From assembly GCA_964512835.1 (NCBI GenBank), contig CAZELA010000003.1:15516-79515 (forward strand): 64,000 nucleotides of DNA, in the 5' to 3' direction. The DNA comes from an uncultured Candidatus Saccharibacteria bacterium (GTDB lineage Bacteria; Patescibacteriota; Minisyncoccia; Phycocordibacterales; UBA2100). The translations under genes were made by a program, and so were the position numbers. Shown here piece after piece: positions 20,285 to 62,432 of this stretch; within the stretch, counting starts at the first letter, position 1, and each line of letters begins with the position of its first letter. The notes under the pieces were generated by a model. The model was not told the DNA's origin. It was given only the letters and a program-made list of their open reading frames with translations, and ran no database searches.

Positions 20285-22072
20285 TTATTTTTGGTCGTCC
20301 TCGCGCTCAAAGAGCAGTTCGTCCGGAAGACGGAACAGTCCTTCGTCGTTTCGTTTTTGCTCTATGAAGTGAGAAATGAATCCGACGGTACGCGGGATCA
20401 CGAAGAGCGCGTTAAAAAATTCGGCCTCGATGAGCTCCCCGATCTCGGAATCGGTGTATCCTTCTTTTTCCTGCAGCAGATCCAAAAGCAATGCCGCCAT
20501 CACCCCGTCCACGTTCAGTATCAAATTACCGTTTTTGCCGGTCGTGACCGCTTCGATCGCACGAGCAAAGTCATAGTGAGGATGATTCGAGAGCAGTGAA
20601 GCGAACTCTGAGAGCGCCGCGACGCGCGGATCAGGAATGCCGACACGATATTTCCGGTGCCCGATACCGGAAAGCAGCACGCCGGATTTATTTTTTGCCT
20701 CCACATATGCAGCGGCGTCGTGAGCGCCTGTCACCCCTTCGTGCCAGCTCCGGGCGGCCTCATTTACTGCACCGCCGAAACGCGGACCGACGGTAAGGAG
20801 TCCCGCTGCGAGCGACGCAACCATGTCTTTACCTGCCCGCGCCGTCACCATCGTGTTGACCGCGCCGGAGACATGACCGCCATGATCGATCAGGAGCTCA
20901 AAAATATTTTCCACGAATGCGGCCGTCTCAGCGGAAACCCGTTTACCGAGGAGTGCATGCAGCGCGGCGGACGCAAACGCATTCTGCGGCTGTTGCACGA
21001 GCGTACCGTCTTTCACGAAGCGCGGAACCTCGTCGAGGTCCACAATCTTGCGCGATGAGAGAATGCTGTGTTTCCGGTTCATGAACAGGGCTGTATCAAT
21101 GACGGTATCACGAACGGACGGGAGCGGAAGGTCGCGAAGTGCCTGCAAAAAAAGCGGAAACGACTCCGGGGCAACAGCGCCCGCGGCATTCAGCGCGTCG
21201 CGCTTCGCACGCGCACTTTCATCTTTGCGTGCAACGAGCGCCTTCGCATGACCGAACTGCATACGCTCGTCGAACGCTTCGTCGATGACGCCCGCAACAT
21301 AACAGATGATAGGCTTCGTCAGTTTTTTTGTCCGCATGAGATCGACGATCTCGTACTCGTCAGAACCGCCGAGCTCACCGAAATACACGATCGCTTTTGT
21401 GGCCACATCCCCTTCTGCGAGCGCAAGCACCTGCGAGAGCGCAGTGACCGGGAACCGATCTCCACCGATTGAGAGCGAGAAGGAAACGCGCTTGCCCGCA
21501 TGTGACACGGCGCGGATCAGCTCGTTGGTCATGCCGCCTGAGGTAGAGACGACCGCGACCGACCCTTCGGTCGCCAGATGCCCCGCCTCGATCTGCGCTG
21601 CGTCGGTGCCGCCGATCGCACCAAGCTTCAGATAATGCGGCACAAGCAGCCCGACACCCGAAGGTCCGGCGATAAGATATCGCTCACCATAGCGGGCAAT
21701 GAGTTCGGTCGCGTGACGCTCAGGCACGTTTTCTGCGAACAAGTGTGCTCCGAGCGCATCCGGAAACGCATCGAAAAAACCGCAGGTCGTTTGGAACGTG
21801 CGTCTACCCGACTGCGCATTGAGGAGCCACTGTATTCGCGCCCGCATACGCTCCGGTATTGCAGCGTAGTCCCGGTAGCATGGGATCAAAATTTCGCGTG
21901 CTCCAAAAAAGAATTTTTGAGCCTTTCTCGTACCGGCGATGATACCGACGACCGATGGGGCAGATTTACCGGACAAAGCGTCGAAATCCAGAATCGACTG
22001 CACGATGCCGGCATGATTACCGACGACCAATATGCCGTCCCCTCCCGTGCGTATGTGTTCGAGTATCGTCAT
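20285..22072 (-). CDS. aclA: ATP-citrate lyase alpha subunit (CoA-binding/phosphohistidine domain plus citrate-synthase-like domain)
   Basis: Motif-level match to the C-terminal half of eukaryotic ACLY: 'MQFGHAKA' vs 'VQFGHAGA' catalytic His; 'HGGHVSGAVNTMVTARAGKDMVASLAAGLLTVGPRFGGA'; 'GIGHRKYRVGIPDPRV'; 'NLILNVDGVMAALLLDLL'; 'ALFVIPRTVGFISHFIEQKR'. 595 aa, typical of bacterial AclA. Confidence 0.88.
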   Translation of the reverse strand: MTILEHIRTGGDGILVVGNHAGIVQSILDFDALSGKSAPSVVGIIAGTRKAQKFFFGAREILIPCYRDYAAIPERMRARIQWLLNAQSGRRTFQTTCGFFDAFPDALGAHLFAENVPERHATELIARYGERYLIAGPSGVGLLVPHYLKLGAIGGTDAAQIEAGHLATEGSVAVVSTSGGMTNELIRAVSHAGKRVSFSLSIGGDRFPVTALSQVLALAEGDVATKAIVYFGELGGSDEYEIVDLMRTKKLTKPIICYVAGVIDEAFDERMQFGHAKALVARKDESARAKRDALNAAGAVAPESFPLFLQALRDLPLPSVRDTVIDTALFMNRKHSILSSRKIVDLDEVPRFVKDGTLVQQPQNAFASAALHALLGKRVSAETAAFVENIFELLIDHGGHVSGAVNTMVTARAGKDMVASLAAGLLTVGPRFGGAVNEAARSWHEGVTGAHDAAAYVEAKNKSGVLLSGIGHRKYRVGIPDPRVAALSEFASLLSNHPHYDFARAIEAVTTGKNGNLILNVDGVMAALLLDLLQEKEGYTDSEIGELIEAEFFNALFVIPRTVGFISHFIEQKRNDEGLFRLPDELLFEREDDQK

Positions 22073-23220
22073 GAGTGTATGTAGTGTATTGCCTCTTCGA
22101 CCGCGCGCGTGATTACCTCGTTCGAGCCATATACCGCACCGAGCAGCGATTCTCGTTCCAGAAAGTCATACATGAGTGAGAGCCCCGCGGCTTCGTTCGG
22201 ACCGCCGCGTCGGACGAATACTTTGATCCCCTGCTCACGCATACGCGGAGCGACCTCGGTAAGGGCGTCAATGATTCCAAGAAAGGTCTTTTTTACATCA
22301 GTGAAATTCGCGACGCCGCCCGCGATCACGAGTGCCTTTTTCGGTGCAGTTGAACCGAGCATGAGTGCAGCGATCTGCCGGGCATACAGAAATGTTTCCT
22401 CGCGTGTCGGGCCGCCGCTGTATTCGCCGTAATTCGCGAGCGCTCCGCCAAGTCCCTGCACCTGCACTTCATCGGCGATGACGATCGAGCCCCCGCCGCC
22501 TGAGAGCAGAAAGAATAGTGCCCCGTTCGGGTTGATGACCGAAAGCTTAAGGGAGGCCGGTGTCGTCGCGGCGAGTGCTTCTACCGCGTCCTCTGCCGGA
22601 TGTTTCGAGCGTGCGGTTATTACATCGTCACCCTTCCACGAATCACGTACAAAAAACTCGCCCGCACTGTCCACCAGCGCAGCAGCATCAAGGAGTTCCG
22701 CCATACCGTCTTGAACCACAAGCGGATTGATCTCGAGGAACGCAAAGAATTCTTTGTCGAACGCGACGAACACGCGCTCAAGAAATGGAGCGGGCACACC
22801 GGTCGTCTCGGCGATCTGCGCAACATCATTCGCGGTACGGATCAGAAATGTCTGCACGGCCTCCGGGTGCGCCTCGATGTCGACGCCGCCGTCCCGTGCG
22901 TACAGCACGCGGACACCTTCGCGCACGCGTTCGAATGAAATATAGCGGTCGTTCTGTGCATCGTGTTCAAAATACGGGTCGAGGATGAACTGAGAAAACC
23001 CTTTGGCTTCCCACGAGGCGATCGCGGCCCTGATGTCCGCCTCGCCCTTGTCCACAACGACAAGCCCCTGCTTAAAACGCTTCTTGATTCCCTGATCGAC
23101 TTTTGCGACCCACCGACCGGCCGGTATCGATATAGCACCCGAGCGGAGCTGTACGCCTGAATAGCGCTCGCCGAGCAAGATCTTTTTTGCTGTATATTCG
23201 CTCAGTTTTACGCGCGCCAT
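22069..23220 (-). CDS. aclB: ATP-citrate lyase beta subunit (ATP-grasp, succinyl-CoA-synthetase-beta-like)
   Basis: 'LEINPLVV', 'SLKLSVINPNG', 'GGGGSIVIADE...LANYGEYSGGP', 'VIAGGVANFTDV', 'VFVRRGGPNE' match the ACLY N-terminal region. Its stop overlaps the aclA start (ATGA coupling). Confidence 0.88.
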   Translation of the reverse strand: MARVKLSEYTAKKILLGERYSGVQLRSGAISIPAGRWVAKVDQGIKKRFKQGLVVVDKGEADIRAAIASWEAKGFSQFILDPYFEHDAQNDRYISFERVREGVRVLYARDGGVDIEAHPEAVQTFLIRTANDVAQIAETTGVPAPFLERVFVAFDKEFFAFLEINPLVVQDGMAELLDAAALVDSAGEFFVRDSWKGDDVITARSKHPAEDAVEALAATTPASLKLSVINPNGALFFLLSGGGGSIVIADEVQVQGLGGALANYGEYSGGPTREETFLYARQIAALMLGSTAPKKALVIAGGVANFTDVKKTFLGIIDALTEVAPRMREQGIKVFVRRGGPNEAAGLSLMYDFLERESLLGAVYGSNEVITRAVEEAIHYIHS

Positions 23221-49684: not shown

Positions 49685-50743
49685 TTATAGACCACGCAGC
49701 GCGAGTCCGACCGCGGTGGCAAATTGCAGCGACACATGTTTATCGATCGGCGGTACATAGTCTTCAAACGTTGTGACATGCCGCCACACATTACCCCGCA
49801 ACGCCTTTGCCTGTACGCGTCCCGAAATGTAGTCAGAAAGTCCGCGAAGATTTGCATTACCGCCGACCAGAATGACACGGCCGACCGGAGTCATGCGCTC
49901 CCCGTGCTCATTGCGCCTCGTATCCCAGTAGTGGTAGTGACGCGCAACCTCGTCGGCAAGCGCGGCGGCCGCTCCGCTCACGGCGTCCAGTTCCGGAGAC
50001 TTGGTTCCGTTACGCGTAGCAAGCAGGCCCTCGTCGTTCTTGAACCGTTCGGCGTCTTCGTGCGTCATATTGAGCTTTCCGACGAGCATCCGATCGATCA
50101 GGTCACCGCCCACCTCCACGGTCGACGTAAAGATCGGCACGCCCCGCTTCACGACGGCAAAACCCGTGCGTGCACGACCGAAATCCACCAATAACGTTAT
50201 CGGCTCTTCAGCGTCCGACGATGAAACGGCGCGCGCGATTGAACGCGCCTCAACCTCCAGCGAAAGCAGTGTAATACCGGCGGCAGAAAATGCGTCGACG
50301 TACGCCTGTGCCACGTCTTTCGGGAATACGACAACGCTTATTTCTTCGCTGCCGCCGTCGTCCCGCGAAAGCGTGTTGTAGTCGTACACAGCTGCGCTGG
50401 GTGGAATAGGAACACGGCCTTCAAATTCGAATTCGATCATCCCGAGCACCTGGGCACGCGGCGTGCCGCTCGGGACCTGCATGCTGAATACGTAAGCCGC
50501 CTCTTCGGGTAGTGCCGCATGAGCACAGTAGATACCCTTCAACTCTTTGCGTACGCCCTTGAGCACGTCCGCGAGCGCCGGCACATCATGAATAACCCCG
50601 TTCATTACAATGCCTGAACGGAGCGGAATATCGCCGTACGTCTGTACACGCAGACCGTTCTCTGCTGAAACGAGCGTCAGCCACTTGATCGACGAGTCCG
50701 AAATATCGACACCGGCGGCACGCGGCATCAGGAGACGCGGCAT
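49685..50743 (-). CDS. pilM: Type IV pilus assembly ATPase-like protein PilM (actin/FtsA fold)
   Basis: 'AGVDISDSSIKWLTL' start of the actin-like fold and overall PilM conservation. Start set at MPRLLMPR. Confidence 0.8.
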   Translation of the reverse strand: MPRLLMPRAAGVDISDSSIKWLTLVSAENGLRVQTYGDIPLRSGIVMNGVIHDVPALADVLKGVRKELKGIYCAHAALPEEAAYVFSMQVPSGTPRAQVLGMIEFEFEGRVPIPPSAAVYDYNTLSRDDGGSEEISVVVFPKDVAQAYVDAFSAAGITLLSLEVEARSIARAVSSSDAEEPITLLVDFGRARTGFAVVKRGVPIFTSTVEVGGDLIDRMLVGKLNMTHEDAERFKNDEGLLATRNGTKSPELDAVSGAAAALADEVARHYHYWDTRRNEHGERMTPVGRVILVGGNANLRGLSDYISGRVQAKALRGNVWRHVTTFEDYVPPIDKHVSLQFATAVGLALRGL

Positions 50744-50839
50744 CGGAAACCACCGCGTGAGGCGTCGCGAGAATGTTTCTTTCGCAGCAGAAAGAGCGGT
50801 GGGATCAGAAGACCACATCGCTCAATTATATCAGCATTG

Positions 50840-51235
50840 CTACTTCAATTTCGTTCCCTGTGGAACTTCTCGCTCCGGTTGTATGAGTGCGACACCCTTT
50901 TCGTCTGATGCAGCAATCAGCATGCCCTGACTCTCAACACCGCGAAGCATACGCGGCGCCAGATTTACGATGTACGGCAACTGACGACCGACCAGATCTT
51001 CAGGCTGTTTCCATTCTGCAATCCCGGAAACGATGGTGCGTGTGCCCATCGCTCCGAAATCGATCGTGCACTTGAGAAGCTTGTCGGCGTTCTCCACCTT
51101 TTCAACGGCCACGACGGTGCCGATACGTATATCAAGCTTGGCAAAATCATCGTACGAGATCTCAGCCTTCTTCTCGGGAACCGGAGTCTGTACTTCGACG
51201 GGGGCGATATTATCTGCGGGGGTTTGTTCTGACAT
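50840..51235 (-). CDS. Stand-alone tRNA-binding protein (Trbp111/CsaA/EMAP-II-like OB fold)
   Basis: 'FAKLDIRIGTVVAVEKVENADKLLKCTIDFG...RTIVSGIAEW...IVNLAPRMLRGVESQGMLIAAS' matches the MetRS C-terminal/Trbp111 domain. Confidence 0.82.
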   Translation of the reverse strand: MSEQTPADNIAPVEVQTPVPEKKAEISYDDFAKLDIRIGTVVAVEKVENADKLLKCTIDFGAMGTRTIVSGIAEWKQPEDLVGRQLPYIVNLAPRMLRGVESQGMLIAASDEKGVALIQPEREVPQGTKLK

Positions 51236-51242
51236 AGTCTGC

Positions 51243-51632
51243 CTAGTCTACACTTCCGGTTTTGATATCCAAATAGCGCTGCAGAATGATCGCGGCCGCA
51301 GACGCGTCGTCATGACGGTCATCCGGCGCGTAGCGGTTGGCTTCGATGGAGCTCCCCGCTTCCCACGAGGACGCAATCGGCACGTCGAGCGTCTTTTTCA
51401 GATCCTCGACGAAATCTCGCACCTTCAACGTGATGGGGTTCGGTATCCCGCCGTAGCTTTGCGTATCACCTACCACAATGAACCCGATCTTTTCGTCTTC
51501 GACGATCTTTTGGATCACACCGATGACTCCCCGCATGTTTGCGATGGTCTCACGCGGAAACGCGATCGTGCCCCCCTCGTCCGAGACAGCGAGTCCGATG
51601 CGCTTACCGCCGTAATCGATGCCCAAAAACTT
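51243..51632 (-). CDS. ruvX: Holliday junction resolvase-like RuvX/YqgF
   Basis: 'MKFLGIDYGGKRIGLAVSD' canonical N-terminus. Confidence 0.9.
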   Translation of the reverse strand, partial: KFLGIDYGGKRIGLAVSDEGGTIAFPRETIANMRGVIGVIQKIVEDEKIGFIVVGDTQSYGGIPNPITLKVRDFVEDLKKTLDVPIASSWEAGSSIEANRYAPDDRHDDASAAAIILQRYLDIKTGSVD

Positions 51633-51636
51633 CATG

Positions 51637-52278
51637 TCAGTAATCGTACGCTGTTCCGGTCTCGATTGCATCAAACGCGATGTTGTGGGATTTAAGGATG
51701 CCGCCGACCATTGCCGGAATAAACGCGGCGAATTGCGGGTGCAGGATCATATCGTGCACCGGGAACGCACGCTGCGGTTTGAGCATGATTGCGTAATCGA
51801 TTGCCTGGGACACCTTCATCCATGGACCGGCAACCGGAAGCGCCACGATTTCCACCGGCTCTCCCGGCTCAATAAACGCATCCCCCGGATACCAGAGGCG
51901 ACCCGCGATAAGAAATCCCGTATTTTGGATGCGCGGAATGGACGAGTGGATCTCTTCGTGCACGCCGGATACGCCGGTAAACGCAACGCCGCCGTGCTCG
52001 TGTGTCCCGTCCGTCATGGTGATGTGTTCGATGTGTTCGCGTGTGAGCAACGCAGACACCCCTTCGTTGCAGATAATCACAACCCTCGGGTTTGTAGCCA
52101 CAAGATGTTTTAACGATTCAAGGTGATAGTGGTCAGCGTGTTCGTGCGTGTAGAGAATAACGTCGATACCCGTGAGGGAGGAGTGGATGTTTGCAGTGAA
52201 TGCACCGGGGTCGGTCAGGATGCGGATCCCCCGCTCTTCAATCAGCAGACAACAATGTCCGTATTTCGTTATTTTCAT
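51637..52278 (-). CDS. Metallo-beta-lactamase-fold hydrolase
   Basis: 'YTHEHADH' (HxHxDH) motif. Confidence 0.85.
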   Translation of the reverse strand: MKITKYGHCCLLIEERGIRILTDPGAFTANIHSSLTGIDVILYTHEHADHYHLESLKHLVATNPRVVIICNEGVSALLTREHIEHITMTDGTHEHGGVAFTGVSGVHEEIHSSIPRIQNTGFLIAGRLWYPGDAFIEPGEPVEIVALPVAGPWMKVSQAIDYAIMLKPQRAFPVHDMILHPQFAAFIPAMVGGILKSHNIAFDAIETGTAYDY

Positions 52279-52293
52279 GCGCGTAGTATAGCC

Positions 52294-52707
52294 CTATCGT
52301 TCCTGAAGTTTCGATGTTTTGTAGATTTCGGGCTGAAAGGGTTTCAATCGGACGACACGGGTGTGCAATCCTGCACGGTCGAGCTCGGCCTGCAATTCGT
52401 TTACATAAAAGCTGTGCTGATCGTAGCCGAGCCCTATCACCTCGGGATCAGCCAAAACAATATGTCCGATGAAACCCTCACGATCTCCGAGAACCACCTC
52501 ATCCACAAGATTGCAGGCCTCGACCGTCTTGAGCCGTTCAAGCTCCGTATGTTTCGGCTTCATGCCTTTTATGCGTTCGGTCGATTGATCTCTCGCTATC
52601 GAAACAATGAGCTGCGGATCCTCTACGAGCGCGCGGGCCTGACGGAACATATCGAGATGTCCCTCGTGGAGCATGTCGAACGTACCGAATACCATTACCC
52701 GCCTCAT
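52294..52707 (-). CDS. Cytidylyltransferase-fold nucleotidyltransferase, RibL-like (putative FMN adenylyltransferase, archaeal type)
   Basis: '[22 protein letters not shown]...[18 protein letters not shown]' matches the (H/T)xGH nucleotidyltransferase core and resembles archaeal RibL/TagD. Start set at MRRVMVFG; it overlaps the upstream gene's stop by 4 nt. Confidence 0.7.
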
Positions 52708-53657
52708 GATGCGACTTCCTCCTGATTCTCCCGACTGAGCATATAGAGCGCAAACAGAAGCAGTGCGGTGCCTGCCCACTGCCCCACAAACAGGCCAAAG
52801 TAGGTGCCCGGAGCGTTATTCCCTGCGATGAAATATGCGTTCACAAATACAGCCGCGAGCGGAAACCCGAGCTCTGCGAGCGTTGCGATGGATGCTTTCG
52901 TGAACTGCAGTCCGTAGTAGTAGATAGAGAGCGAAAAGACTCCGGAAACCATTGCCACGATTGCGATAAAGAGCCAGTCCGTGGGAGTAATCGAAGCGAA
53001 CGGAGGCAACTGGTCTTGCGCCGCGGAAAGCATCATCAGAAACACAAAAGCAATACCGAAACGCAGCGCGGTGAGGGTTTGGAATGAACTTGTGCGCAGT
53101 GCGTACTTGCCCAGTACCGTTGATGCTCCCCACAAGAGCGCCGCAGCGAGCGCGAACAACACCCCGAGCATGTTCGGGTTGAACACTTCCCCTTCGTACA
53201 TTTGCGGGCGTATGTCCGGAAAGCTGATGAGGTACGCTCCCGCGATCGCAACGAGCGCCCATATCCAGAAATATTTATGCATGCGCTCTTTCAGAAAGAG
53301 AGCGGCGAGTGATATTGCGATCAACGGTTGCACCTTTTGCAGCAGGATCGCTACCGAGGGATTCACGTACGAGAACGACTGTGTGAATGCTATCGAGGCG
53401 AGCGCCGAACCACCCACTGCGATCACGATGATTGCCGCCCACTCGCGCTTGGTGAATGTCGCGAGCTCCCGCCAATTGAAGAACAGTACCGGGATTACGA
53501 ACAAAAGGTTTACCGCATGTTCGGCGAGCACGATAAAACTCGACGACAGATCCTTTGTAAGGTACGTGCGGAACGGCGCGTCGGTCGCCCACAGCATCGC
53601 CGCCGCGAAGACGAGCAAGGGGCCGAAAAATGCGAGGGATCGGGTTACCTGCTTCAT
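52704..53657 (-). CDS. DMT-superfamily (EamA) transporter; possible RibN-like riboflavin importer
   Basis: 10-TM EamA architecture, translationally coupled (4-nt overlaps) between the riboflavin kinase and RibL-like genes. The substrate is inferred from context only. Confidence 0.8.
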
Positions 53658-53998
53658 ATGTTCAGGAAGTATGCACGAACGAGCGCCACATCGGAAGCCA
53701 TGGCGGCTTTGAGGTCACCGTCGTTCTCAAACCGGCGGTTGTCCCGGATCTTTTCGTATACATCTATGCGCGCGGTCTTGCCGTACAGATTCCCCGACAT
53801 ATCGAGCAAGTGCGCTTCGAGCACCCCGCGTTTTGCATCGCGGAACGCCGCCGCCAAGAACTCCGCGCCGTCGATCACGACTTTCGCCGCGTAAATACCG
53901 TCAAGATCACAGTCGGCGCACTCGATGTTGATAGTGGGGTACCCGAGAAGGGCGGCTCGCTTCGAGCCGTGAACCACTTCACCGGTGAATGATTTCAT
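53654..53998 (-). CDS. Monofunctional riboflavin kinase (bacterial RibF C-terminal-domain type)
   Basis: 'GEVVHGSKRAALLGYPTINI...GIYAAKV...HLLDMSGNLYG' riboflavin kinase motifs; 114 aa. Confidence 0.8.
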   Translation of the reverse strand: MKSFTGEVVHGSKRAALLGYPTINIECADCDLDGIYAAKVVIDGAEFLAAAFRDAKRGVLEAHLLDMSGNLYGKTARIDVYEKIRDNRRFENDGDLKAAMASDVALVRAYFLNI

Positions 53999-55051: not shown

Positions 55052-55276
55052 AGCTGCACGACACCGCTTTCATGTCGCGAACGATTTCCCCCAATCTCAT
55101 ATAGGGCTCTGTTGAGCCTCAATCGGAGGATATCCACTGACGGGCTTGACGTGATGTTAGTTAGTGTATAACCTACACTTAGTGATCGAAATAGCGGGTA
55201 CACCCCGCTCTCTCTCGATCATTACTTAGTGTACTAAATACACTATTTATGCTCTTTGAAATAACGGAGGAAAACT

Positions 55277-56173
55277 ATGAAAAAGCGCACACCGATCGGC
55301 GTGGTGGTCGGCCGATTCCAGGTCGCCACCCTCCACAAGGGACACAAGCATCTGCTCACGTACGCCGATACGCGAAATGAACACCTGCTGGTTGTTCTCG
55401 GTACACCGGAGTTCCCTACCCCACGCAACCCGCTCTCGTTCGAGATGCGGAAGCACATGATCGAAGAAGCGTACCCTGAAGCGATCGTCGTCGAACTTCG
55501 TGACACACCCAAGGATGCCGTCTGGAGCACACAGCTCGATTCGATCATTCGACGGAAGTTTCCGAACGCCGATGCGACACTCTACGGATCACGTGATTCG
55601 TTCCTGTCAGTGTACTGCGGCACCAACCGCACCGAGCTCGTTCCCGAGCTTGTGGGATATTCCGGAACCGTCGAGCGAGCGAAGTACACACCCTCGAAGA
55701 CGACGACTGCGGCATTCCGTGCCGGCGTCGTTCACGGATTCACGAGCAGACTCAAGATGACCCGACCGATGGTCGACATCGCGATCCTGAAACGTCGTGA
55801 AGGCTTGATACTCCTGGGCGGTAAACCTACAGACCCGAAGGGTCTGTGGCGTTTCCCCGGAGGCTTGGTGGATCCGACTGACCCGTCGCTCGAATTCGCC
55901 GCAAAACGCGAATCGTACGAAGAAGTTCGGAACATCGAGATCGACGACGTCACCTACATCGGTTCGACGTCGGTCAATGACAGCCGCTATCGCGGCACCG
56001 GTGAATACGCGATCACCGCACTGTGTATCGCGACCTACATCTTCGGCAGAGCAGAAGCGGGCGATGATCTCTCGCGAGTCGAGTGGTTCCCTGTCTCGCA
56101 ACTGCCGAAGGTGCTCATCCCCGAGCATCGTAAGCTCGGCGAGATGCTCACCAACTATCTCTCACGCGCGTAA
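55277..56173 (+). CDS. nadM: Bifunctional NMN adenylyltransferase / Nudix hydrolase (NadM-Nudix)
   Basis: N-terminal 'GVVVGRFQVATLHKGHKHLL' archaeal-type NMNAT (HxGH) and C-terminal Nudix box 'GGKPTDPKGLWRFPGGLVDPTDPSLEFAAKRESYEEV'. Confidence 0.88.
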   Translation: MKKRTPIGVVVGRFQVATLHKGHKHLLTYADTRNEHLLVVLGTPEFPTPRNPLSFEMRKHMIEEAYPEAIVVELRDTPKDAVWSTQLDSIIRRKFPNADATLYGSRDSFLSVYCGTNRTELVPELVGYSGTVERAKYTPSKTTTAAFRAGVVHGFTSRLKMTRPMVDIAILKRREGLILLGGKPTDPKGLWRFPGGLVDPTDPSLEFAAKRESYEEVRNIEIDDVTYIGSTSVNDSRYRGTGEYAITALCIATYIFGRAEAGDDLSRVEWFPVSQLPKVLIPEHRKLGEMLTNYLSRA

Positions 56174-56193
56174 GCGCTCCATAGGAGGACGTC

Positions 56194-57607
56194 ATGAACG
56201 CCCATGTAGGACCACTGACTTCGATCACAACGGCCGGCATCATCACGCTGACCGATAGCTACAAGCCGACGCACTGGCTGCAGACACCGTCGAGAACGAC
56301 GATGATCTATTCGTTCCTGGAAAGCCGCGGCGGCAAGTTCAATGCCGTTACGTTCTTCGGTCTGCAGTACTACCTGATGAAGTACTTCGCGGGAGTGGTG
56401 GTGAACGAACAGTTCATCAAGAAGGCCCGTCGACGTTTCAGGGCTCACTTCGGCAACGACGCGCTGTTCAACGAAGCCGGATGGCTACGACTGATCGAGA
56501 AACACGGCGGCAAGCTGCCGATCCGCATCAAGGCGGCCCGAAGGAACAACTGTTCCGACCGGCAACGTACTGATGACAATCGAGAACACCGACGAGGAAT
56601 TCGCCTGGATCACGAACTACCTCGAGACCTTGCTCTCGATGGTGTGGTACCCGTCGACCGTGGCGACGCAGAGCCGTGAAATGCGTCGGGTACTGCTCAA
56701 GTACCTGGTCATGACCGGCGATCCGTCGCTCATCGACTTCAAACTGCACGACTTCGGTTTCCGCGGTTCGACCTCGGTCGAAAGTGCGGGAATCGGCGGC
56801 GCTGCGCATCTGGTGAACTTTTTGGGCACCGATACGCTCGCCGCACTTGATGTCGCCGAAGACTACTACGACGAAGAAAGCGCCGGATTCTCAATTCCGG
56901 CAGCCGAACACTCCACGATTACCTCGTGGGGTCGCGAGAACGAGGCCGAAGCATTCGAAAACATGCTCACGCAGTTCCCGAGCGGACTCGTTGCCGTGGT
57001 GTCCGACAGCTACAACATCTACGAAGCGTGCAAGAAGATCTGGGGCGAACAGCTTCGGGAGAAAGTGCTCGCTCGTGATGGCGTGCTTGTCGTTCGACCG
57101 GATTCCGGCTACCCGCCGGACACGGTCGTCGTCGTGCTGAACATCCTGGGCGAGAAGTTCGGATACACCATGAACGACAAGGGCTACAAAGTCCTGAATC
57201 CGAAGGTTCGCGTCATCCAGGGTGACGGCATCGACTACGAGATGCTCGACAAGGTGCTGGTCGCGATGAAGATCGCCGGATGGTCGGCGGACAATGTCGC
57301 GTTCGGCTCGGGCGGCGGTCTCCTGCAGAAGGTCAACCGTGACACGCAGAAGTTCGCGATCAAGTGCTCGTATATGGAAGTCGCCGGCGAAGGTCGCGAC
57401 GTGATGAAGGACCCGATCACCGACCCGGGCAAGCGCTCGAAGGCGGGCCGACTCGCGCTCGTGAAGATCGATGGCGAGTTCAAGACCGTCCGCGAGGAAG
57501 AGGCAGCCCGCCTCGGACTCAAGGATGAGCTCGAGACCGTGTTCGAGAACGGCGAGATCCTGGTCAAGCACAGCTTCGCGGACATTCGTGCCCGCGCAGC
57601 AATCTGA
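56194..57607 (+). pseudogene. nadV: Nicotinamide phosphoribosyltransferase (NadV/NAMPT) interrupted by a -1 frameshift near 56535-56545
   Basis: Frame 1 (56194..~56540) encodes the NAMPT N-terminus ('...LPIRIKAA'). Frame 2 from ~56541 continues '(R)PEGTTVPTGNVLMTIENTDEEFAWITNYLETLLSMVWYP...', matching '[23 protein letters not shown]...' of known NAMPT. One missing C in the 'gcggcccg' run explains it. It is either a true pseudogene or an assembly error. Confidence 0.85.
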
Positions 57608-57693
57608 TTACTCCGTTTTCCCTCTTCCGCGCGCACTTCGGTGCGCGCGGTTCTTTGTTGCATGAACGTTCACAGAAAAGCTACTATGCTGCC

Positions 57694-58386
57694 ATGTCTC
57701 CCCTTCTCATACTTACCTGGACCGCGGCAGTCTCCCTGTGCGCGATCGGCGCCGCGTACTACGCACGAACATCCGGCCGCGCAGATGCGATCGTCGCACT
57801 CTATGTCACGCTCGTCGTGGCCTCGAATTTAGTCGCGTCAAAGATAGTCGGTTTTGACGTCGGTGCGACCACCCTTTTTGCTCCCGGTGCGACACTTCTG
57901 TTTTCGGTCACCTTTTTGCTGACCGACATCGTGAACGAGCGATTCGGCAGACAGGAAACCCAACGGATGATCTACATCGCCATGTTCGCACAACTCGCGT
58001 TTCTGCTCTTCGGTTACATCGCTGTGTCGGCTACGCCCGCGCCGTTCTTTTCGGGACAGGCTGCCTTTGAAACCGTGTTCGGAACGGTACCGCGCATCGC
58101 ACTCGCCGGACTCGTCACGTTTCTCATCAGCGAGTCACTCGATGCATATCTGTATCAGTGGTTTCGCCTGAAAACGCATGGCCGCAATTTGTGGCTGCGA
58201 AACGCGTTCAGCTCCATACCCGCGATGCTTTTGGACAGCGCGCTATTCGTCACGCTAGCGTTTTACGGAACGACGGCACTCCTACCGCTCATCATCGGAC
58301 TCACGATTGTGAAATGGATTGTCGCGGTGATCGACATTCCGTTCATGTACGCCGCCCGCTGGGTACTCGGTACGCGCAGTTCCTAG
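57694..58386 (+). CDS. YhhQ/VUT-family (DUF165) membrane transporter, queuosine-precursor-transporter family
   Basis: 6-TM 'vitamin uptake transporter'-like protein with conserved 'LLTDIVNERFG' region. Start set at MSPLLIL. Confidence 0.75.
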   Translation: MSPLLILTWTAAVSLCAIGAAYYARTSGRADAIVALYVTLVVASNLVASKIVGFDVGATTLFAPGATLLFSVTFLLTDIVNERFGRQETQRMIYIAMFAQLAFLLFGYIAVSATPAPFFSGQAAFETVFGTVPRIALAGLVTFLISESLDAYLYQWFRLKTHGRNLWLRNAFSSIPAMLLDSALFVTLAFYGTTALLPLIIGLTIVKWIVAVIDIPFMYAARWVLGTRSS

Positions 58387-58427: not shown

Positions 58428-58512
58428 GGAGGGGTGGCAGAGTGGTCTATCGCACCTGTCTTGAAAACAGGAGTCTCGCAAGGGACCAAGAGTTCGAATC
58501 TCTTCCCCTCCG
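58428..58512 (+). tRNA. tRNA-Ser (anticodon TGA)
   Basis: Acceptor GGAGGGG/CCCCTCC; anticodon stem CCTGT/ACAGG; loop CTTGAAA; long variable arm; T-arm AAGAG-TTCGAAT-CTCTT; discriminator G. Confidence 0.88.
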
Positions 58513-58522
58513 CAATGATTCA

Positions 58523-62353: not shown

Positions 62354-62425
62354 GCTCCCGTCGTTCAACGGATAGGATGCATCCTTGCGGAGGATGTGAT
62401 GTAGGTTCGATTCCTGCCGGGAGCA
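62354..62425 (+). tRNA. tRNA-Arg (anticodon read as GCG)
   Basis: Acceptor GCTCCCG/CGGGAGC; anticodon stem CATCC/GGATG; loop TTGCGGA; T-arm GTAGG-TTCGATT-CCTGC (one G-U). D-stem has two G-U pairs, so the anticodon call is moderate. Confidence 0.6.
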
Positions 62426-62432
62426 CAATGCA

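Follow-up and report, generated by a model that had tools for sequence, protein, structure and literature searches.

A nicotinamide salvage operon of NrtR type in Patescibacteria, with nadV probably inactivated by a recent deletion in one strain

The pairing of a nadM-Nudix gene with nadV is described as NAD (nicotinamide adenine dinucleotide) 'salvage II', and in Synechocystis sp. PCC 6803 the two genes form an operon regulated by NrtR, whose operators are palindromes with 21-bp (base pair) symmetry and a GT-N7-AC core (Rodionov et al. 2008, PMC2330246). The DNA analysed here, hereafter the window, is a stretch of 64,000 nucleotides (nt) of contig CAZELA010000003.1 (positions 15,516 to 79,515) from an uncultured Candidatus Saccharibacteria bacterium, and it carries such a pair. 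The order is the same as in Synechocystis, a bifunctional NadM-Nudix-like gene followed by nadV, and palindromic GT-N7-AC operators lie upstream, as they do there; a further common trait is a gene for NrtR (Nudix plus winged-helix) linked to the operon, found in relatives of the window, whereas nrtR is not adjacent in the window locus itself. The locus also differs in that its host belongs to the Patescibacteria (candidate phyla radiation), that its NadM-Nudix is shorter (298 amino acids, aa) and bears no more than a remote resemblance to the curated family, and that its nadV appears to be inactivated by a 2-bp deletion. We consider it very likely that the window holds a salvage operon of NrtR type in which nadV has been inactivated by a recent 2-bp deletion, fixed in one Patescibacteria strain, and that the transporter gene found after nadV is independent of it.

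An earlier note on this DNA, made by reading the sequence, had recognized nadM-Nudix, nadV and a transporter gene of the YhhQ/VUT family, and had proposed that the first two constitute the two-step route from nicotinamide to nicotinamide mononucleotide (NMN) and then to NAD. Positions and identities of all three genes agree with the open reading frames (ORFs) and Pfam domains found, and the proposed route matches 'salvage II' as published (PMC2330246). The locus is laid out as follows:

55161..55181, no strand assigned: NrtR-type operator box 1, TTAGTGTA-TAACC-TACACTTA, an imperfect 21-bp palindrome with GT-N7-AC core
55226..55246, no strand assigned: NrtR-type operator box 2, TTAGTGTA-CTAAA-TACACTAT, about 30 nt before the start of nadM
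55277..56173, plus strand: nadM-Nudix, 298 aa, ORF intact, NMN adenylyltransferase-like plus Nudix
56194..56535, plus strand: 5' part of nadV, frame 1, codons 1-114, NAMPT_N domain
56536, plus strand: site of the nadV deletion, an orphan G that would be the remnant of a Val codon (GTN)
56537..57607, plus strand: 3' part of nadV, frame 2, codons 116-471, catalytic NAPRTase-family domain
57627..57660, plus strand: intrinsic-terminator-like hairpin, CCGCGCGCAC-TTCG-GTGCGCGCGG then TTCTTTGTTG
57694..58386, plus strand: YhhQ/COG1738 (Vut_1) membrane transporter, 230 aa from the ATG at 57694
58428..58513, plus strand: tRNA-Ser(UGA), the downstream limit of the locus

In Pfam scans, NAMPT_N (PF18127) was found in the frame-1 ORF 56194..56679 (E=7.5e-33) and NAPRTase (PF04095) in the frame-2 ORF ending at 57607 (E=2.6e-57). 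The starts of nadM and nadV are preceded by the Shine-Dalgarno sequences GGAGG and AGGAGG, respectively. The nearest homologues are labelled as candidate phyla of Parcubacteria type (Kaiserbacteria, Campbellbacteria, Paceibacterota), one close metagenome-assembled genome (MAG) being labelled Saccharibacteria.

The two NAMPT domains are not encoded in one contiguous frame. Frame 1 reads …G K L P I R I K A up to its final codon GCG (56533..56535), frame 2 begins PEGTTVPTGNVLM… and reads P E G T T V P T G N V L M T I E N T D… from its first codon CCC (56537..56539), and G56536 is the single base that belongs to neither nadV frame. Past the break, the frame-1 ORF reads on for another 47 codons, all unrelated, and ends at a TGA (56677..56679). 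When 111 full-length homologues were aligned, none had a gap in the column that separates IKA from PEG (V in 88, I in 21, A and L in one each). In nucleotides, the window has AAG GCG G-- CCC GAA where the relative L006 has AAG GCG GTG CCT GAA, and the same spot is GCG GTA CCG, GCC GTT CCG and GCG GTG CCG in three other close relatives (L009, L090 and L091, respectively). Moreover, the four closest full-length homologues all count 471 aa, which is the length of the window protein once 2 nt, and with them one codon, are restored. Since this Val column is never gapped and the relatives carry GTG, GTA or GTT, two bases are missing in the window: nadV as aligned has lost GT or TG from a Val codon, at a place outside any homopolymer.

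These results modify the earlier description of the lesion. A switch between frames 1 and 2 had been placed near 56538; it is real and lies at 56536, but the single-base frameshift to which it had been ascribed, a C missing from a CCC run, is in fact a 2-bp deletion. Indeed, CCC is the Pro codon itself and, since passing from frame 1 to frame 2 implies one base too many or two too few, a one-C repair lands in the third frame, where it yields K-A-A-P-K-E-Q-L; the alignment contradicts this repair as well. With GT or TG lost from the Val codon that separates the conserved motifs IKA and PEG, translation would leave the NAMPT frame after residue 114 and stop 47 codons further on; full-length nicotinamide phosphoribosyltransferase would not be made, and NadV enzyme activity would presumably be lost.

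Whether the deletion is genuine was assessed on assembled contigs and gene-call proteins. The exact sequence of the C-terminal fragment protein (P0034) led to five contigs, from the Logan assemblies SRR23702483, SRR23702481, SRR13208893 and SRR12404947 and from the NCBI assembly GCA_054403375.1, all with the deleted junction and 99.85-100% identical to the window across 3-7.7 kb. A JGI contig (L007, sample 3300045377) matches the window fully from 56505 on and has the same junction, its first 594 nt being unrelated GC-rich DNA that forms a chimeric end. Exact-sequence look-ups placed the N fragment on five contigs and gave more C-fragment gene calls on JGI and Logan contigs. In total, the deleted allele was recovered in at least 10 contigs, which stem from several independent datasets. 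No match was obtained in JGI metagenome contigs with the pattern CGCATCAAGGCG-N{0,4}-CCCGAAGG…, which does match L007, so that the collection searched apparently lacks these samples; a scan of GTDB genomes returned only two related loci, neither of them from the window's own genome, and a literature search on the sample accessions turned up nothing.

As one and the same 2-bp deletion is consistent over pipelines and projects, we read it as a genuine mutation, fixed in one widely sampled, near-clonal strain. Between the two alternatives that had been put forward, gene decay or sequencing error, the recurrence of the allele in many independent assemblies thus speaks for decay. That nadV is really intact, the gap being an error repeated from one assembly to the next, seems scarcely conceivable. 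The surroundings are GC-rich (GGCGGCCCG), some contigs with the locus are plainly chimeric at their ends (L007, L092, L093), and the nearest 'intact' relative, L006, is itself a mosaic that may be a co-assembly chimera, all of which would suit an artefact. However, the identical junction came from different pipelines (Logan, NCBI, JGI) and from several runs and projects, and a 2-bp loss outside a homopolymer is an atypical platform error. The variant contig L003, which differs from the window at six other positions (two of them synonymous, in nadV), still retains the deletion, and an intact allele of the window strain was absent from the protein collection searched, where the top full-length match is 92% identical and stands alone in its own cluster.

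The ends of three JGI contigs, L007:1-594, L092:1-177 and L093:2206-2262 (samples 3300045377, 3300045378 and 3300045372), are chimeric or inverted-duplicate and generate spurious 'variant' proteins, namely P0010 (484 aa), P0126 and P0130. As candidates for further decay of nadV, these three proteins were rejected, being products of contig-end chimeras.

L006 (CAZWFX010000006.1, MAG SRP278252_co2_728) is 100% identical to the window over 50700..53100 and 56700..57800, save for about 10 clustered differences in 57000..57100, whereas identity is about 85-90% elsewhere and falls to 64-79% across nadM and the N part of nadV. This mosaic could have arisen by recent recombination between co-occurring strains or by co-assembly chimerism and, as it may be chimeric, L006 was left out of the rate tests on the C part. 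Run SRR12404947 gave the window strain and SRR12404957 a third related strain; judging by accession numbering, both would be linked to SRP278252.

A different outcome would have been a frameshift common to the relatives and accompanied by signs of programming, a possibility that the earlier note had raised. The comparison covered 82 loci outside the strain (80 metagenome loci retrieved with the NadV profile, together with the closest relatives), and in every one of them a single frame holds both parts of nadV, N and C, with exactly one codon between them; all relatives being in frame, the shift is private to one strain, and no such signal was found. A ribosome shifting by +1 (or -2) at GCG-G-CCC would nevertheless produce a full-length NAMPT one residue shorter, and several observations are compatible with it: nadV bears no second lesion, its C part is under normal purifying selection on the window branch, the allele is kept in slightly diverged strains, the zero-frame codon two positions past the site, AGG, is rare (2.7 per 1000), and the local RNA fold is somewhat more stable than that of shuffled sequence (z=-2.7). 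However, the site has neither a zero-frame slippery codon nor a stop, CCC occurring only in the incoming frame; the next zero-frame codon, CGA, which would occupy the A site, is common (10.6 per 1000); no spaced Shine-Dalgarno-like stimulator is present; and the site lies within the predicted stem, not upstream of it. In addition, the product would be one residue short where length is invariant in the 111 homologues, and an arrangement found in 0 of the 82 relatives does not amount to an evolutionarily conserved signal. The locus thus lacks what characterizes a prfB-like programmed +1 frameshift, that is, a slippery codon, a stop or hungry codon in the A site and conservation in relatives. Neither of the internal ATGs at 56573 and 56639 is preceded by a Shine-Dalgarno sequence. 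Recoding and a designed split gene are unlikely, and a ribosomal shift at this particular site is highly improbable.

As regards codon usage, the window encodes a tRNA-Arg at 62354..62426 with anticodon GCG (ARAGORN), while CGA is among its common codons at the frequency given above. The usual anticodon of this bacterial tRNA-Arg is ACG (inosine).

Apart from the deletion, nadV is in good condition. At columns conserved in at least 95% of homologues, the N fragment has a single deviation in 33 (Tyr31 to Thr), and the C part has none in 146. The reconstructed NadV aligns end to end with human NAMPT (2gvg and related structures, E about 1e-150), catalytic motifs included, and the active-site motifs DSY, HDFGxRG, GTD, AEHS, RPDSG, GDG and GSGGG are conserved in this alignment. 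The roles of the residues in these motifs are those assigned in published NAMPT structures. The window protein thus keeps HDFGFRG, GTDT, AAEHS, RPDSG, QGDG and GSGGG in common with NAMPT/NadV (human 2gvg; NF006629) but, unlike NAMPT, its coding sequence is broken after residue 114 and is not contiguous as encoded; NF006629 is passed with 620.4 bits against a cut-off of 405 only by the sequence in which the Val codon is restored. Synonymous divergence (dS) between the window and L009, L090 and L091 amounts to 0.5-0.65 in both parts of nadV, equal to that among the relatives themselves, and the ratio of nonsynonymous to synonymous rates (omega) in the C part is about 0.10-0.12, a normal value. 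Since nadV is otherwise undamaged, its loss would be recent, and as judged from these comparisons nadV is a young pseudogene, the deletion being recent enough for the rest of the gene to have stayed intact.

Several observations nonetheless weigh against this reading. Private amino-acid changes on the window branch number 13 in the 114 residues of the N part versus 6 in the 356 residues of the C part, compared with 7 (N) versus 25 (C) for three relatives taken together (Fisher p=0.0025). Private codon changes show the same imbalance, with synonymous to nonsynonymous ratios of 6:7 for the N part as against 25:5 for the C part (p=0.024), the nadV N parts of other lineages giving 17:4; those of the N part include Asn15Gly, Tyr31Thr and Leu65Phe, at well-conserved positions. 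A very recent knockout alone does not predict such an asymmetry, and neutral decay of the whole gene would strike the C part too, all these statistics resting on small counts. Within the strain, variants of nadV are few, with two synonymous (L003) and one nonsynonymous (P0124), too few for relaxed selection to be recognized. Finally, no nrtR was found in the 64-kb window by tblastn, which bears on the assignment of the operon to NrtR control.

Two explanations of the asymmetry were rejected. An N part imported from a distant lineage is contradicted by its dS, which is the same as for other pairs, and no homologous peptide exists in the other frames, as a compensated double frameshift behind the N-terminal changes would require. 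The asymmetry may possibly stem from a constraint on the N domain that was relaxed before the break, or from an older break after which the 3' part was selected or overwritten by recombination.

In the latter case, a C-terminal ORF starting at ATG 56573 or 56639 would still be selected, alone or as half of a split enzyme, or would have been overwritten recently by recombination, while the N fragment drifts. This is decidedly unlikely, even though the surplus of private and nonsynonymous change is restricted to the N fragment, whose synonymous divergence is the same as in other pairs, and the blocks of identity with L006 within 56700..57800 resemble a recombination tract. Indeed, the internal ATGs lack a ribosome-binding site, and the 3' product would be without the conserved PEGTTVPTGNVL strand and without the residues of the N domain that correspond to DSY in human NAMPT, a motif that contributes to the nicotinamide site. 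Drift in the N fragment is moreover mild, as 32 of its 33 highly conserved columns are unchanged; co-assembly chimerism in L006 may account for the blocks of 100% identity; and the counts behind the statistics are small. A related scheme, in which the catalytic 3' part stays selected through low-level +1 recoding at GCG-G-CCC or as part of a two-piece enzyme, the N fragment being under relaxed or altered constraint, strikes us as very unlikely. A young pseudogene remains our preferred interpretation of nadV.

By contrast with the broken nadV, nadM-Nudix has an intact ORF and, judging by an omega of about 0.2, is under purifying selection. Its architecture is that of the bifunctional NadM-Nudix enzymes, with an N-terminal nucleotidyltransferase domain bearing an HxGH motif and a C-terminal Nudix domain: the Pfam scan gave NUDIX with E=2.7e-14 and a weak match to CTP_transf_like, and the N-terminal motifs GRFQVATLHKGH and SGTVER are those of a nucleotidyltransferase. 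The two-domain plan is common to the NadM-Nudix of Francisella tularensis (NMN adenylyltransferase / ADP-ribose pyrophosphatase; PDB 2qjt/2r5w), whose GRFQ…HKGH motif and Nudix REx2EE core are recognizable in the window protein. However, significant alignment with 2qjt covers only about 60 N-terminal residues (residues 6-65 of the window protein, E=7e-8), and the motif GRFQVATLHKGH carries an insertion of two residues relative to GRFQPFHKGH. The Nudix box reads G196-x5-D-x8-RESYEEVRN against the canonical GX5EX7REUXEEXGU; the REx2EE core is there, with a spacing one residue longer and the final G replaced. Curated equivalog models are not reached either, the best score (PRK05379) being 43.6 bits for a cut-off of 397, and the NCBIfam NadM/Nudix equivalogs in general giving about 40 bits for cut-offs of 350-450. 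On these scores, we regard the protein as a remote relative of the curated NadM/Nudix family with the same architecture. It is 79% identical to its L006 orthologue, in which GRFQVA(T/A)LHKGH is kept.

Inside this same motif, L003 shows a within-strain polymorphism, Thr18Ala (codon 18 of nadM, window position 55328). Of the relatives, L006 and L091 have nadM sequence at this codon, and both likewise carry Ala.

Upstream of nadM, a region of 225 nt contains two copies of TTAGTGTA-N5-TACACTAA, 65 nt apart, with the consensus TAGTGTA-N5-TACACTA. These two are the only matches to the palindrome in the 64 kb, against 0.07 expected by chance, and L006 and L091 carry them unchanged or almost unchanged even though dS is about 0.6. 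Relatives with no more than 65-75% identity in nadV have comparable pairs of boxes before nadM, at a spacing of about 60-65 nt. A box lies within 220 nt upstream in 14 of the 21 loci where nadM directly precedes nadV, and box density reaches 5.4 per kb upstream of nadM compared with 0.12 per kb elsewhere (about 46-fold). The core of the box fits the NrtR consensus GT-N7-AC. Relatives have further boxes still farther upstream, in front of a gene of about 230 aa that has NUDIX and an NrtR winged-helix in nine of the ten cases tested; tblastn detected an nrtR homologue (E<=1e-8) at 25 of the retrieved loci, with about 20 matches good enough to be called nrtR, beside nadM-nadV. By analogy, NrtR would bind these boxes and respond to ADP-ribose. 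A promoter scan was negative for sigma-70-like sites, a result that tells nothing in this phylum.

The other end of the operon is marked by a hairpin located after nadV, with a 10-bp GC-rich stem, a TTCG loop and a T-rich tail. It is retained in L009 and L090 with compensatory changes in the stem, and equivalents made of a hairpin and a T-run are also found 3' of nadV in distant relatives that have no transporter there. From the conserved boxes and the conserved terminator, the unit can be delimited as NrtR boxes, nadM, nadV and terminator; the two operator palindromes, nadM-Nudix, nadV and the terminator would thus form one NrtR-regulated nicotinamide salvage operon. By the same token, since a conserved terminator follows nadV, the YhhQ/VUT gene is probably a separate transcription unit. 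The earlier statement that the transporter follows nadV directly does not hold in a functional sense, as this GC-rich hairpin with its T-run intervenes and as the adjacency is limited to the closest clade: apart from the window, the transporter adjoins nadV in L006, L009 and L090 alone, and the 80 loci L010-L089 offer no example.

The transporter itself contains Vut_1 (PF02592, E=3.3e-43), in an ORF that is open from a TTG at 57655 and for which gene calls give 230 aa. The YhhQ/COG1738 family has experimentally supported preQ0 transporters, but it is heterogeneous, and other substrates have been proposed for some subfamilies (Zallot et al. 2017, PMC5372724). In common with Escherichia coli YhhQ and COG1738, the window protein has the Vut_1 fold family and a length of about 230 aa, and it passes TIGR00697 (queuosine-precursor transporter) with 135.9 bits for a cut-off of 50.95; it differs from E. 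coli YhhQ in scoring 41.7 bits against the equivalog PRK11212, whose cut-off is 252, and in the lack of a detected preQ1 riboswitch. Within the window, a link to queuosine genes (tgt, preQ1 riboswitch) was not found: no preQ1 riboswitch reached the gathering score, and no queuosine gene was recognized among the scanned ORFs. Going by family models and position, we see the gene most simply as a queuosine-precursor-type transporter, outside the NAD module.

The earlier note had suggested that this transporter supplies an NAD precursor, on adjacency alone, and the results favour a different reading. A transporter forming part of the NAD module and taking up nicotinamide, NMN or nicotinamide riboside, thereby compensating for the loss of nadV, would be consistent with its position beside nadV in the window and the three closest lineages and with the heterogeneity of COG1738 (PMC5372724). 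We nevertheless hold it to be unlikely, given the conserved terminator in between, the lack of an NrtR box upstream of the transporter, its absence from the flanks of the 80 more distant nadV loci and the queuosine-precursor model that it passes. Moreover, since relatives with an intact nadV also have the transporter, it is not there as compensation for the loss of nadV. A separate transcription unit, probably unrelated to NAD salvage, is accordingly the reading retained here.

The dS of the VUT gene relative to L009 and L090 is 1.7-2.7, far above the 0.5-0.65 of the neighbouring nadV in the same genomes. This gap suggests either that nadV was exchanged more recently or that it is under stronger codon constraint.

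Elsewhere in the window, no NadD, NadE, PncA, PncB, NadR, PnuC or NiaP was found by Pfam scans of 48 further ORFs, nearly all of them of at least 160 aa. At 52294..52779, a small cytidylyltransferase-like gene is grouped with genes for a riboflavin kinase and an EamA transporter, and looks like part of a flavin module. This compact module occupies 52294..53998 on the minus strand by the NAD module, and comprises this cytidylyltransferase-like gene (possibly an FMN, flavin mononucleotide, adenylyltransferase), the EamA-family transporter and a stand-alone riboflavin kinase, with overlaps of a few bases. At 20285..23220, also on the minus strand, lies a pair of genes with ATP-citrate-lyase-like domains (Citrate_bind plus ATP-grasp; CoA-ligase plus a citrate synthase C-terminal domain), which is unusual for a small Patescibacteria genome. 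The remaining genes of the window, according to Pfam scans, have the content typical of such a genome.

A search of the literature on NAMPT in Patescibacteria returned nothing relevant. The points made here are unlikely to surprise a specialist, and only the operator motif and the asymmetry between the N and C parts of nadV merit a further look. The locus also illustrates that transporter substrates should not be deduced from adjacency alone. The NrtR-controlled nadM-nadV design, known from cyanobacteria and others, would be extended by this locus to Patescibacteria, and the well-conserved motif TAGTGTA-N5-TACACTA could seed the reconstruction of a Patescibacteria regulon. The deletion in nadV, for its part, would represent a population-level case of a cofactor-salvage step being lost in an already minimal genome of episymbiont type; if this operon were the sole NAD route, the strain would have to obtain NMN or the riboside from its partner.

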